Shown: piece by piece, positions 1,634 through 54,176 of the stretch | How the letters are laid out: each line of letters starts with the position of its first letter | How positions within the stretch are numbered: position 1 is the first letter of the stretch | IMG/VR virus record: IMGVR_UViG_3300020045_001345 | Coordinates: 13,920 to 77,919 of that record | Direction: 5' to 3' (one strand) | Source of the DNA: a virus | Taxonomy: Duplodnaviria; Caudoviricetes | Length of the DNA: 64,000 nt | Notes under the pieces: model-generated | Seen by the model: only the letters and a program-made list of their open reading frames with translations | What the model was told of the DNA's origin: nothing | Database searches by the model: none | Translations under genes and position numbers: made by a program

Positions 1634-3301
1634 ATGAGTGGTTATTGGAAAGCAGATAAACAAGGAGAAAATGGAATGAATAAAGAAGTATTTGTGCCAA
1701 AGGAAACACTGAAGGATGTTGAGGGGTATCCCTTTAAAGACTTGCCAGAGCGAGGGCTTAGGAAAGAAACACTACAGCGTTTTGGTGTCAAAGTAGGACT
1801 ATCTGAAGAAGATGGTACAACTGTCGTTGCTGTGTATTTTCCATCGTACAATCAGAAGGGTAAAATCACAGGGTACAAAAAACAAGATTTAACAAAAGAT
1901 AAGAGTGAGAAGTATCACTGGTCTACCATTGGCAGCGTTTCTATCCAGAATAAATTATTTGGTCAAGAGGTTGCTGAAAGTATTCAAAGAAAACATACAT
2001 TTCTACACGTAACAGAGGGGGAATATGACGCATTAAGTTGCTTCCAAGCTTTAAAAGATCAAGTGAAAGGTACAAAGTTTGAAGGGCTTGAACCATCTAT
2101 CACCAGCATCCCTCTTGGCACAGCCAATGCAGTAGAAGCTATGCTACATAATCAGGAATTTGTTCTGAGCTACTCTTCATTGTGTATGTTCTTTGATGAT
2201 GATTATTGCACACCAGCAGAGAAGTTAAAAGGTGTGATGAAGGGGCATGAAGCTCGTGAGGCTGTTGCCAATGCTTTTGTTGGTGCAAACATAGATTTGT
2301 TTACGGTGTCTACTACAGGTGACTATAAAGACGCCTCTGATCTCCTTCAGGACGGTAAGAGTGATGAACTTGCAAAACTTGTGCAGTTTGGTAAACGTCA
2401 ATTTAGTGCTGAAAAAATTGCCAATGCAGCCAGTATAAGTTTTGATGAAATCATTGCAAAACCGCCAGAAGGCGTCTATATCAAAAGTTTTCCAATGTTG
2501 ATGGAGAAGATTCATGGTTTTAGGTGTTCAGAACTGACACTACTTACCAGTGGGAGTGGTGTCGGAAAAAGCACTATCACTTCAATTTTTGCAGCTGATT
2601 TTATTGATGCTGGTAAGAAGGTTGGTCTTATTTTTCTTGAGGAAACAAAAGTACAGACATTGCAGCGTATGGTTGCACATAAACTGAAAGTTAATTTCAA
2701 TAAGTTTAAGGAAAATCCGCTCTCTGTCGCTTCTAAAGAGAGTATCAGAGAGGCTTATGACAGTATTGTAGATAACGATATGGCTGTCTTTCTTGACCAT
2801 TTTGGTAATCTACCTGTATCAGAGTTGATGAGCAAAGTAAAACACATGCATCTAGTTTCTAAATGTGATTTTATTATTATTGATCATCTTACTTTGTGTG
2901 CGTCAGGTGGAGGGGGTGAGTTAGATGAAAGACGAGTATTAGATCAAGTAATGACAGAGCTGGCAGCGTTTTGTGCATCAAACAAAGTAGGTATAATTGC
3001 CATCAGTCATATCAATCGTGGAGGTTTTGCAGATAACAAACCTCCAAAGGATGCTGATGAGAATCCTTACTGGGTTAAAGTGGACAAATCTCACATGCGA
3101 GGGTCATCAGCTTTGGAACAGTTGAGTTGGACTATTTTAGGAGTAGAAAACCAGATCATGCCAGACCGAAGCCGTGGCAATGTACGCCTCACTGTTTTGA
3201 AGAACAGAACATTCGGATCTTTGGGGGTTGCAGACGAGTTTAGTCTTAATCAAGATACATGGGAAGTTGAATTAGCTAACCAAGACCCTTGTGAATTCTA
3301 A
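1634..3301 (+). CDS. T7 gp4-like DNA primase/helicase (TOPRIM + DnaB-type helicase); no N-terminal Zn-binding domain visible
   Basis: VTEGEYDALS and FFDDD (TOPRIM), KDASD, Walker A GSGVGKS, IIIDHL, SHINR, RGSSALEQLS, KNR. Confidence 0.93.
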   Translation: MSGYWKADKQGENGMNKEVFVPKETLKDVEGYPFKDLPERGLRKETLQRFGVKVGLSEEDGTTVVAVYFPSYNQKGKITGYKKQDLTKDKSEKYHWSTIGSVSIQNKLFGQEVAESIQRKHTFLHVTEGEYDALSCFQALKDQVKGTKFEGLEPSITSIPLGTANAVEAMLHNQEFVLSYSSLCMFFDDDYCTPAEKLKGVMKGHEAREAVANAFVGANIDLFTVSTTGDYKDASDLLQDGKSDELAKLVQFGKRQFSAEKIANAASISFDEIIAKPPEGVYIKSFPMLMEKIHGFRCSELTLLTSGSGVGKSTITSIFAADFIDAGKKVGLIFLEETKVQTLQRMVAHKLKVNFNKFKENPLSVASKESIREAYDSIVDNDMAVFLDHFGNLPVSELMSKVKHMHLVSKCDFIIIDHLTLCASGGGGELDERRVLDQVMTELAAFCASNKVGIIAISHINRGGFADNKPPKDADENPYWVKVDKSHMRGSSALEQLSWTILGVENQIMPDRSRGNVRLTVLKNRTFGSLGVADEFSLNQDTWEVELANQDPCEF

Positions 3302-51483: not shown

Positions 51484-53156
51484 TTAAGGTACTGAAGGTA
51501 CGGGGCTAGATTGTGTTATTGGCGTTATTGAGAAGATTGGCATAGATTGTGACTTCATACAAGTATTAGCTGCGTCTGAAGTAGCATCCACAGGATCATC
51601 AAATCCACCGCGTCTACCTGTAAAATCCTCTAAGCAGGCAATATACCAGTTGTTCCATTCACCAGCCAACATGGAGCAATTGCCTGATTCACATAAACTT
51701 GAGAAAGGGCTGAATCGTGCCACTTTACCAGAGTGTCCAGACATCACACTAGATTGTGTAGGTATCCCATTCTCTGCTAAAACTTTACGGTAATAGGCGT
51801 GTGCTACAGATCCACCAGCTCCTGAGTCTTTTGGTAACACAATTTTTACATCAGCGCCATCTTCAATAGCAATTGCTATAATTTGCTTCAATACGCCATC
51901 TGGTCTGTCTCTAAATTTATATGCATCTAAGATATAGTAGTGGCCTGTTACTTTACCTTTACCAACTTTTACTCCGCAAGTCCAATCGGGATTAGGATTT
52001 GACTCAGAAGGGACAGTTGCAGCTAAGTCGTATCCACGCACAATAACAGACAGTTCCTCTGGGATTTCATTTACGATTGGAACCCAAGCACTTCTCCAAA
52101 GTTGGCTAGCTTCTTCTTTAGCATGCCAGCTTCCTAGATACAGGCGCTCTCTCTCAGTACGTTTAAGATTCTCAAGCCTCTCTACATAAGCAGGGTTTAG
52201 CACCTTCATAATAGGGTTATCACGGACAGTTGCACTGATATACGTGTATGTCTGGGGTTTTATTCCGTCACCATATGTAGCAATAAGCTCTTCTTTAGTG
52301 TCTGCAATAACAGTTACACCACCCCAAGTAGCATAATACCTCTCAATTCCTGACAGCTCTGGTTTAGGGATTCCTGTTTCAAGGTCGAGATATGGTTTTA
52401 CGAACTGGTAAAGATAGCAGGTCATGCTAGGGTTAGCGGTTGCAATTAATTGGTGTGGAGCTTTTGCTTTAGACCTTATGCGAGATTCTAGGTACTTTAT
52501 TTGAACATCAGAATGCCATTGAGCCTCATCGAAGATGATTAGGGATGCCTGTAATCCGTCAAAATTATTAATATCCCTGTCATGCTGGCACACTTTAAAT
52601 TGTACTTGTGCGCCAGAGGGGAATGTTGCAGTCATTTGAGGGTGAGATTTAAATTCAGCTCCAAATTGCCTCCACATACTCTGTGCTTCCATAAACAAGC
52701 CTCCTGCCTGTGAAAGCTGTGTGCTTGTTTGTCTTATGAAAACTGCCCTAAAATTAGGGTCGTTAATATACTTCAATATTAACATCAATGCTTGGTGTGA
52801 CTTGCCAGCCGGATATTCAAGTAAGTTCGTGAGGCTTACCCCGCAATTAAGCTGCTATACCTTCATATATACGTATAGAGTTGACTATATCATCATCCCA
52901 GTAGGATGCCTTCCGTTTCCACTCACTTGAGTGTACGAGCTTTCGCTCTAGTCGATGAACGTTCGCCTATAGGCGCTTCGCTGCTGATAACCCGCTAGGG
53001 CTTCCCAGTCAATTAAAAAGGTTTGCTCTACAGATTGCTCTGCAGAGGGGCATAGCAATTTTACCCTGCACCACCACCAAAGATCACGAACGAACTCTTG
53101 CAATTCAAGAACATCCTATGTGCTTCTGAGGCGGGTGATAATTTTATTTTACTCAT
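51484..53156 (-). CDS. terL: Terminase large subunit, two exons: 53156-53063 joined to 52808-51484 (472 aa)
   Basis: The spliced junction restores Walker A VIFGGGAG-S-GKS; Walker B LIIFDEAQ, coupling motif ATANP, nuclease RGYDLA and FDDPVDA. Confidence 0.92.
52809..53062 (-). ncRNA. Group I self-splicing intron (254 nt, no internal ORF)
   Basis: 5' exon ends in U pairing with G of the IGS (GGGU/GCCC); terminal G at 52809; P AAUUGACUGGGAAG (53014-53001), Q UAUCAGCAG (52989-52981), R GUUCAUCGACUAGA (52960-52947), S GAUAUAGUC (52891-52883); P2 CUCUGCAGA-GCAA-UCUGUAGAG; P8 CAUCC/GGAUG. Confidence 0.92.
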
Positions 53157-53409
53157 TTATACTCCTTAAATTGGTTCGCGGGCTACCCTTACCATGCTCC
53201 ACGAAATCGGCACAGCAAACTCTGTGCCCTCTCCACAAAATGCTATTAAAGCACTTACAGGAACCTCCTAGCTACTGAGGAGAGGCAGGATTACGCCCAG
53301 AGGTTCCTGTAAAAACTCTATAATACGAAAGTGGTGCTTACCCAGCACGAAGTGGTGGCTTGCCCGACCAGCACCCCAATCAAGGGGAAAGTCCCATAAG
53401 GGGAACTCT

Positions 53410-53482
53410 TGGAGCAGCCTGACGGATTTGAACCGTCTTCTTAACCTTGGAAGGGTTAGCCCTATCCCAGTAGGAAGGCTGC
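53410..53482 (-). tRNA. tRNA-Gly(UCC), 73 nt, encoded CCA, atypical D arm
   Basis: Acceptor GCAGCCT/AGGCTGC-T-CCA; anticodon stem TAACC/GGTTA with loop CT-TCC-AA; T arm GACGG-TTCAAAT-CCGTC. Confidence 0.85.
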
Positions 53483-53492
53483 ATAAATTGAA

Positions 53493-53667
53493 TTTGTAGC
53501 CGCTGCTCACCGAGCAATTTAATTCAGCTAATAGATTATTACAAAGGATTTCATACCTTCTGCTGACACATTTAAAGGGTTGTGATTGTTTATGTCTTAT
53601 AATTTGACAAATGACATAAACAAAAGCTCACACTTTTACCGAGTCTATACTCGCAACCTACTACAAA
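53493..53667 (-). ncRNA. Unassigned multi-stem structured RNA candidate
   Basis: Closing stem TTTGTAG/CTACAAA; internal stems CGAGT/ACTCG, TTGTTTATGTC/GACATAAACAA, TCAGC/GCTGA, AAGG/CCTT, TGCTC/GAGCA; no ORF with an SD. Confidence 0.5.
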
Positions 53668-53701
53668 ACTTGCTATGTCCACTACACTGTAATGTACAAA
53701 T

Positions 53702-53778
53702 TGGTGGAGCTGGTAAGATTTGAACTTACGACAATAAGCCTTGTGGACTTTGGTTCTACCAGACTGAACTACAGCTCC
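53702..53778 (-). tRNA. tRNA-like gene (77 nt) with degenerate anticodon arm; isotype undetermined
   Basis: Acceptor GGAGCTG/CAGCTCC-A-CCA; D arm GTTC-AGTCTGGTA-GAAC; T arm GTAAG-TTCAAAT-CTTAC; anticodon loop CC-ACA-AG lacks U33. Confidence 0.75.
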
Positions 53779-53783
53779 GTACT

Positions 53784-54119
53784 CTAATCAACCTCTTGAA
53801 TATTAGCAAAATCCAAGATAGGTCTACTATTAACAACACTCAAACTCTCCGCAGGACTGCCTTTATACTTATACTCTGCAATGAGTCTTGTAATATTATC
53901 AGTATTTTGTTTATCTAATACACTTACGTAAAATTCTAGTAGCTTTGTTGCACAAGCTAGTTTAAGCTTCTCATCTTGTGTTGTTTCCATTGTTGTTTCT
54001 AGCATATCAATAGCAGCATTAGACACTTTAGATAGCTTTTTAACAATAGTATCAAAACTTCCTTTTCTCTGCATGAAGCCAGAAGTTTCTTGGATTACAC
54101 TAATTTTCTGTGTAGCCAT
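53784..54119 (-). CDS. terS: Putative terminase small subunit
   Basis: Helical 111-aa protein, first gene of the morphogenesis operon, upstream of terL. Confidence 0.6.
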   Translation of the reverse strand: MATQKISVIQETSGFMQRKGSFDTIVKKLSKVSNAAIDMLETTMETTQDEKLKLACATKLLEFYVSVLDKQNTDNITRLIAEYKYKGSPAESLSVVNSRPILDFANIQEVD

Positions 54120-54147: not shown

Positions 54148-54176
54148 ATAGTAACATAAACTATCCATTTTGTCAA
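54148..54176 (-). promoter_or_regulatory. sigma70 promoter of the morphogenesis operon
   Basis: TTGACA-17-TGnTACTAT; short dyad ATAGT/ACTAT over the -10 box. Confidence 0.85.

Follow-up and report, generated by a model that had tools for sequence, protein, structure and literature searches.

A candidate family of small structured noncoding RNAs in phage tRNA arrays

It has been known since T4 that small stable RNAs can accompany the tRNAs in phage tRNA clusters. Those of T4, rnaC and rnaD, are 139 and 119 nt long and lie inside the tRNA cluster on the tRNA strand. Small RNAs of the 3'ETS-leuZ type are short, weakly structured and act by base pairing. 3'ETS-leuZ itself is a sponge RNA derived from a tRNA spacer (bioRxiv 10.1101/2021.04.25.441314). 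Larger structured RNAs also occur next to tRNA genes, including the phage- and prophage-associated GOLLD and ROOL RNAs, which often adjoin them (PMC12286853). Likewise, HDV-like theta ribozymes sit beside phage tRNA genes, with the cleavage site adjoining the tRNA, and a role in tRNA maturation has been proposed for them (PMC10879173).

We analyzed a 64,000-nt stretch of DNA from an uncultured phage (hereafter the window). It spans bases 13920-77919 in an IMG/VR virus record of 77.9 kb whose completeness is estimated at 91%. A TerL comparison places the phage closest, among cultured phages, to FelixO1-like myoviruses of Salmonella and Escherichia (42% identity). An earlier reading of the letters of this DNA (the original prediction) had singled out a spacer of about 175 nt between two tRNA-type genes as a candidate for an undescribed structured phage ncRNA, which processing of the flanking tRNAs could set free. 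With a probability of roughly 0.6, we favor the joint reading that this spacer is a small structured ncRNA gene of a rare, uncatalogued family, which is carried as a cassette of tRNA arrays, released by tRNA processing and active in trans as a folded RNA.

The features surrounding the candidate are listed in their 5' to 3' order on the minus strand.

54148..54176, minus strand: promoter-like site (TTGACA, 17 nt, TACTAT, with TG), a consensus match only, 5' of the terS-like ORF
53784..54119, minus strand: 111-aa ORF at the terS position, 29% identical to the ORF at the equivalent place in the related locus L002
53702..53778, minus strand: tRNA-like gene (ARAGORN tRNA-Cys, anticodon ACA; Rfam tRNA 53.9 bits), CCA encoded, odd anticodon loop
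53493..53667, minus strand: candidate ncRNA, 175 nt, between the tRNA-like gene and tRNA-Gly(UCC), within the interval between the terS-like ORF and terL
53410..53482, minus strand: tRNA-Gly(UCC) (ARAGORN and Rfam), CCA encoded, beginning 10 nt past helix P1 of the candidate
between tRNA-Gly(UCC) and terL, about 250 nt, minus strand: structured leader, followed by a short first terL exon
52862..53073, minus strand: group I intron in terL (Rfam 62 bits)
51484..52788, minus strand: main terL ORF (Terminase_6N/6C; T4-type TerL)
following terL, minus strand: portal gene (Mu-type)

Both tRNA-type neighbors postulated for the candidate were recovered by ARAGORN and Rfam. The tRNA-like gene has a good tRNA score, yet ARAGORN assigns it the anticodon ACA and it has a C at position 33. 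In related phages, the equivalent place 5' of tRNA-Gly(UCC) is often occupied by tRNA-Thr(UGU), and L002 has merely a T-arm/acceptor remnant there. The name terS for the 111-aa ORF is a guess from position, and searches of Pfam and PHROG gave no match for it. The promoter-like site at 54148..54176 is the nearest candidate start for a transcript that would carry the terS-like ORF, the tRNAs and the 175-nt RNA, and no promoter-like site closer to the RNA was found. In L002, which is a complete relative, a perfect sigma-70 consensus (TTGACA, 17 nt, TATAAT; 2039-2067) directly follows the terS-like ORF and heads a 970-nt non-coding, tRNA-containing interval, which suggests a strong promoter belonging to the RNA array of that phage.

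The original prediction could not match the spacer by eye to tmRNA, RNase P, SRP, 6S or a known ribozyme, and Rfam 15 bears this out. A scan of 52700..53900 (gathering thresholds and E ≤ 10) returned both tRNAs, the group I intron, and chance miRNA and ycf2 matches that lie outside the candidate. On the candidate itself, even at E ≤ 10, there was no match to any family, including the models of known ribozymes (HDV-like and others) and aptamers. ARAGORN and RF00005 made no tRNA call inside 53493..53667, and the candidate has no cloverleaf T arm (GTTCRAnnC-type loop). A protein-coding reading was rejected: as had been proposed, there is no credible ORF, because stop codons interrupt each frame in two or more of the four homologous sequences described below and no frame is open in all of them.

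The RNA shares the niche of T4 rnaC and rnaD, in that all four members adjoin tRNAs of the same strand, and the route of release is probably the same. The T4 GenBank record labels rnaC and rnaD (species 1 and 2 RNAs) "small, stable RNA", without a function. Homology to these RNAs was rejected, given that our covariance model of the new RNA (CM R1, filters off) scores at most 6.6 bits over the T4 tRNA region. Furthermore, rnaC combines an acceptor-like stem with a T arm like that of a tRNA (GGUUCGAAUCC), whereas the 175-nt RNA has neither. Bacterial and phage Y RNAs of the YrlA type (RF02553) are likewise structured, are 100-200 nt long and are closed by a terminal stem, but the 175-nt RNA lacks their T-arm-like module. 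RF02553 has no match in the spacer at E ≤ 10 and, elsewhere in L002, reaches only a chance-level 19.5 bits (gathering threshold 69). GOLLD and ROOL, for both of which Rfam holds a model, measure about 500-800 nt or more; our RNA (157-183 nt) matches neither.

The comparison with 3'ETS-leuZ concerns origin, since that functional RNA is excised from a tRNA precursor by the tRNA-processing machinery. The present RNA differs in folding into multiple helices over 175 nt, with junctions that are conserved. A search for antisense targets turned up none that was convincing, given that complementarities within the window reach no more than 11-13 nt, which is about what chance provides. We also observed that the 9-mer TGCTGACAC, which complements a conserved strand of the candidate (J3/4-P4, see below), has four further sites (11202, 30585, 31212 and 41493) compared to 0.66 expected from shuffles. 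This excess was picked post hoc and is given no weight; it may reflect codon usage.

Searches with TerL recovered more than 370 related proteins, through which 77 loci of related phages were obtained. Three homologues of the candidate were found. The first (L003) came from a close terL relative, in which the corresponding stretch likewise opens with UUUGUAG and closes with CUACAAA. A full-length copy (L029) was identified with nhmmer over the related loci, and a third copy (L082), on a 1.5-kb contig, came from a metagenome scan with a pattern built from shared 3' motifs. The four members are as follows.

53667..53493, minus strand of the window: upstream tRNA-like gene, gap 34 nt; reference for terL identity
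L082, 192-365: upstream tRNA-Gly(GCC), gap 17 nt; contig without terL
L029, 1832-2014: upstream tRNA-Asn, gap 3 nt; terL 58% identical to that of the window
L003, 2424-2580: upstream tRNA-Leu(UAA), gap 3 nt; terL 82% identical to that of the window

The members are 157-183 nt long and 55-80% identical in pairwise comparisons. CM R1 scores them at 122-186 bits (window, 185.9), and the highest-scoring other match among 560 kb of related loci is at 16.8 bits. All four copies lie 3-34 nt 3' of a tRNA in the same orientation. The similarity starts and stops with the RNA, because each of the four has different flanking tRNAs. Alignment of L003 is poor in its 5' half, and the equivalents of its P2 and P3 stems are our own reading.

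One architecture fits all four members. It is predicted to be a five-way junction in which P1 closes the loop and from which P2, P3, P4 (enclosing P5) and P6 branch off. Its elements in the window are given below.

53660..53667, minus strand: 5' strand of P1, UUUGUAGU, paired with 53500..53493 and invariant in all four members
53640..53653, minus strand: P2 hairpin, CGAGU, loop AUAG, ACUCG
53582..53632, minus strand: long P3 hairpin, with basal P3a (UGUGA/UCACA), a 4-nt bulge and an 11-bp perfect helix
53567..53581, minus strand: J3/4, conserved single strand, ACCCUUUAAAUGUG
53524..53566, minus strand: P4 domain, with P4 UCAGC (53566..53562)/GCUGA (53528..53524) enclosing P5 and J5/4
53517..53523, minus strand: J4/6 linker, AUUAAAU, 7 nt, the same in all four members where aligned
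53504..53516, minus strand: P6 hairpin, UGCUC, loop GGU, GAGCA (5 bp, 3-nt loop)
53493..53500, minus strand: 3' strand of P1, GCUACAAA

P1 comprises 7-8 bp, UUUGUAG(U)/(G)CUACAAA. The distal part of P3 is the 11-bp perfect helix TTGTTTATGTC (53623..53613)/GACATAAACAA (53597..53587). Inside P4 are P5 (GAAGG/CCUUU, loop UAUGAAAU) and J5/4, a conserved 14-nt strand (GUAAUAAUCUAUUA). P6 is separated from P1 by 3-4 nt across the members (3 in the window).

Every helix named in the original prediction is present where it was placed on the minus strand, including the closing TTTGTAG/CTACAAA (53667..53661 and 53499..53493), the 11-bp helix and the TCAGC/GCTGA domain. Two hairpins had been drawn inside that domain. 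Only one of them, P5, is conserved. The other (UAAUA/UAUUA) is peculiar to the window, and the strand in which it lies is elsewhere kept for its sequence rather than as a stem. Several alternative pairings can also be drawn: GGUUG in J1/2 with CAACC, CACA with UGUG in place of P3a (RNAalifold), GUUGC with GCAGC in place of P6, and a contact between the P3 and P5 loops. Among the four sequences, P6 and P3a carry compensatory support and the alternative pairings carry none.

The prediction of a structured RNA is borne out by compensatory changes in P2, P3a, P4, P5 and P6. We aligned the four members with MAFFT, without the use of structure, and scored 28 pairs; 92.7% of the cells form standard pairs. 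Changes on both sides occur in 9 of the 28 pairs compared to 3.3 +/- 1.4 in shuffled alignments (1 of 500 as high), and controls in which partners were slid by 1-3 columns give 0-3 such pairs. An alignment fitted to the model contains 12 two-sided pairs compared to 4.2 in shuffles (0 of 500 as high). These covariation statistics are nonetheless weak because there are only four members.

Among individual helices, P6 is 100% paired, and three of its five pairs change on both sides (UGCUC/GAGCA in the window, UCUCC/GGAGA in L029). P4 is also 100% paired, with two two-sided pairs (window, UCAGC/GCUGA; L003, UUGGC/GCCAA), and P5 is 85% paired, again with two (window, GAAGG/CCUUU; L082, GGCGG/CCGCU). 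P3a has changed on both sides between the window (GUGAG/CUCAC) and L029 (GUAAG/CUUAC). The third pair of P2 is A-U, C-G or G-C across the window, L082 and L029; as read from the alignment, this stem is CGCU/GGCG in L082 and CGGA/UCCG in L029. P3 differs in length and sequence among the members, and its distal stem in L082 is UAUAUUC/GAAUAUA. P1 is 97% paired, and six of its eight pairs never vary. Since P1 and much of P4 are invariant, they provide no evidence from covariation. The constancy of P1 may point to a role in recognition or processing.

The invariance of the terminal TTTGTAG/CTACAAA sequence would also suit an element that acts as DNA, with the RNA structure as a by-product. Such an element could be an inverted repeat bound by a protein, a site for recombination or homing, or a packaging (pac) site. 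In agreement with this idea, three members have the RNA between packaging genes, in an interval that attracts mobile elements (the group I intron and homing-endonuclease-like DUF723 ORFs). However, several compensatory changes restore pairing only via G-U, and thus only on the tRNA strand. The kept pairs include G-U wobbles (U8-G168 and P6 of L082) that correspond to C-A mismatches on the opposite strand, and the constraint therefore acts on RNA of the tRNA strand. Furthermore, the L082 copy resides in a tRNA array by a YqeY gene, on a 1.5-kb contig without a terminase gene, and there are complete relatives that lack the RNA. For these reasons, we regard a DNA-level element as highly improbable.

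The junction strands are the most conserved parts, and P2, P5, P6 and distal P3 vary. Across the window, L082 and L029, the invariant columns are 8 of 8 in J2/3, 11 of 14 in J3/4, 11 of 14 in J5/4 and 7 of 7 in J4/6; in the last of these, all six ungapped columns are invariant across all four members. The combination of stems that vary with compensation and junctions (J2/3, J3/4, J5/4 and J4/6) that are nearly invariant suggests a defined tertiary core.

Conserved junctions between variable stems are also typical of ribozyme cores. This raises the alternative that the RNA is self-cleaving or otherwise catalytic and matures the adjacent tRNA, much as the HDV-like theta ribozymes would. Only 3 nt lie between the CCA of the upstream tRNA and the RNA in L003 and L029, and the theta ribozymes show that ribozymes beside tRNAs are employed by phages (PMC10879173). 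Several features of the 175-nt RNA count against this proposal, in addition to the absence of any Rfam 15 ribozyme family at E ≤ 10. Theta ribozymes are of the minimal, double-pseudoknot HDV type, whereas a length of 157-183 nt is large for a self-cleaver and, in our reading of the predicted fold, the 5' strand pairs with the 3' terminus, unlike a nested double pseudoknot. The spacing to the tRNA also varies, and with gaps of 17 nt (L082) and 34 nt (window) a cut would not fall at the tRNA end in those members. We therefore consider a tRNA-maturing ribozyme very unlikely.

The folding energy of the candidate was compared to that of shuffled sequences. The 175-nt sequence folds at -42.2 kcal/mol compared to -33.7 +/- 3.3 kcal/mol for 200 dinucleotide shuffles (z = -2.54; 1 of 200 as low), and z drops to -1.53 once the flanking spacers are added to the fold. 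The window sequence is thus more stable than its shuffles, whereas in the homologues the excess is weak or absent (z of -0.9, -2.0 and -0.5). Enforcing P1, P4, P5 and P6 costs 0.1-2.4 kcal/mol relative to an unconstrained fold of the window, L029 and L003 sequences. For L082 the penalty of the common architecture is 8 kcal/mol relative to the MFE of that sequence. By our estimate, a 7-bp inverted repeat by itself is about what chance provides in a 219-nt spacer; the TTTGTAG/CTACAAA repeat is more than chance because it is kept in all three homologues. Judged from these sequences, the thermodynamic signal is modest, and it is comparison rather than thermodynamics that supports the RNA.

The RNA is rare. 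It is present as one copy in its own genome and absent from 42 of the 44 related virus records searched whole with the covariance model. Of these 44 records, 14 are at least 90% complete, as are 13 of the 42 that lack the RNA, and many of the scanned loci have tRNA arrays. CM R1 detected no further member over 73 + 4 + 15 loci. Pattern scans of IMG/VR viral contigs returned only the L029 contig and false positives in coding sequence. The corresponding scan of JGI/ENA metagenomes returned L082, the L029 contig and 11 other matches, all due to chance. Likewise, a scan of 185,579 prokaryote genomes gave four chance matches, none of which was scored by the covariance model. With blastn against GenBank phages, the 651-nt interval has no match, and the RNA alone has only chance 45-nt matches to Enterococcus phage coding sequence. 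A search for relatives of L082 via YqeY yielded none that are close, and the one 81-kb contig examined has no tRNA array nearby.

The spread of the RNA does not track the TerL tree, since the L029 RNA is 69% identical to that of the window and the L003 RNA 56%, even though the TerL of L003 is much closer. The constant partner is the tRNA array, not the terminase, because the tRNAs in L082 form a different array that precedes a small ORF and a YqeY-domain gene rather than terS/terL. Single-copy in its own genome and missing from most relatives, the RNA is thus an accessory cassette of tRNA arrays, and a rare one. The interval between terS and terL is a hot spot in this clade, holding 0-16 tRNA genes and homing-endonuclease-like DUF723 ORFs. 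Locus L095, whose TerL is 68% identical, shows the reach of this hot spot, with 16 tRNA genes in the interval at 647-2703.

These same distributional facts bear on two further explanations that tie the RNA to its neighbors. A packaging RNA like the phi29 pRNA (multi-branched, about 174 nt), which joins the packaging motor, would match the candidate in size, in multi-branched fold and in its terL-adjacent position in three members. The Rfam phage pRNA family, which we take to be RF00044, is among the models that found no match at E ≤ 10. The phage encodes a T4-type TerL and a Mu-type portal, and no use of a pRNA is known for such systems. Moreover, relatives that share these packaging genes, close and complete ones among them, do without the RNA, and L082 carries it on a 1.5-kb contig that has no terminase gene. 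A pRNA is thus barely credible.

The second of these explanations is that the sequence acts in cis within a polycistronic precursor, either as a spacer that guards the folding or processing order of the tRNAs or as a part of the terL leader. It is always inside a tRNA array and on the same strand, and in L029 no tRNA follows it, so that the conserved terL leader comes directly after the RNA. Against this, a mere spacer would not keep nearly invariant junctions across phages whose TerL proteins are only 58% identical, and 42 related records, including the 13 that are at least 90% complete, manage without it. In addition, L082 places the RNA in a different context, and the window has a tRNA between the RNA and the terL leader. 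A purely cis-acting role is in our view unlikely.

The vicinity of terL holds other structured elements that are distinct from the 175-nt RNA. A motif in the terL leader, UUGUGGAGA(G/A)G followed immediately by a 6-9 bp hairpin, occurs in at least 12 related phages and is far more widespread in the clade than the 175-nt RNA. In four leaders examined by eye (window, L002, L003 and L029), a CCUCUCC-type upstream strand could pair with this motif, which may be a cis-regulatory structure of terL. Its sites are as follows.

53157-53409, minus strand of the window: terL leader motif
L002, about 2700-2810: terL leader motif
L003, about 2900-3060: terL leader motif
L029, about 2040-2125: terL leader motif
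L007, L008, L009, L053, L054, L056, L057 and L095: terL leader motif also present

In related phages, the gaps between tRNA-Thr and tRNA-Gly are occupied by a further, unrelated set of structured spacers that are also conserved. These spacers have blocks in common, for example AAAGYCYUCGG ... GGCACC or GACACGGAGCAC, and those of L014 and L054 share a nested hairpin domain. The spacer in L002 has no Rfam match.

L014, 1948-2106: tRNA-Thr/tRNA-Gly spacer
L054, 2347-2893: tRNA-Thr/tRNA-Gly spacer
L018, 1456-1688: tRNA-Thr/tRNA-Gly spacer
L026, 1840-1993: tRNA-Thr/tRNA-Gly spacer
L002, about 2330-2400: tRNA-Thr/tRNA-Gly spacer

Finally, the terL gene of the window, like that of three close relatives (L003, 3217-3426; L004, 689-899; L005, 3197-3431), is split in its 5' part by a group I intron (Rfam 62-90 bits). 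In the more distant relatives L002 and L006, terL is uninterrupted and encodes 480-483 aa.

Under our favored reading of the 175-nt RNA as a tRNA-array cassette released by tRNA processing, the RNA would be transcribed together with the neighboring tRNAs, probably from the promoter-like site 5' of the terS-like ORF. We infer co-transcription and release by the tRNA-processing enzymes of the host because the genes share a strand, no promoter-like site is nearer, the CCAs are encoded and the gaps to the tRNAs are short. The 5' end would be set by cleavage and trimming behind the encoded CCA of the upstream tRNA, which would fit the position of all four copies downstream of a same-strand tRNA. 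The sequence just 5' of P1, AGU-UUUG or, in L003, GAA-UUUG, resembles the A/U-rich preference of RNase E. At the 3' end, RNase P would cut at the 5' end of tRNA-Gly, and 3' trimming would then proceed to P1. L029 has no following tRNA, and release of the 3' end by RNase P therefore cannot be general. P1 would clamp and protect both ends, and the folded RNA would probably work in trans, most likely by binding a protein.

A bolder proposal sees in the junction strands the core, whether active or binding, of a new functional class of RNA carried by phage tRNA arrays, either a ribozyme acting on tRNA precursors or a decoy or aptamer for a host factor. The factor could possibly be a tRNA-targeting defence nuclease or an RNA chaperone, for example. 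We consider this quite unlikely; if true, the RNA would be more than a passively stable by-product.

We regard the RNA as a real, conserved and structured ncRNA whose family is new to a niche that was already known. With four members, this is a solid candidate motif and no great surprise. It adds to phage tRNA clusters a family that is unrelated to rnaC and rnaD and more elaborately folded, and one that moves between the tRNA arrays of different phages. A function for it, if found, whether in tRNA processing, in counter-defence or through a protein partner, would help explain the non-tRNA RNAs in phage tRNA arrays.
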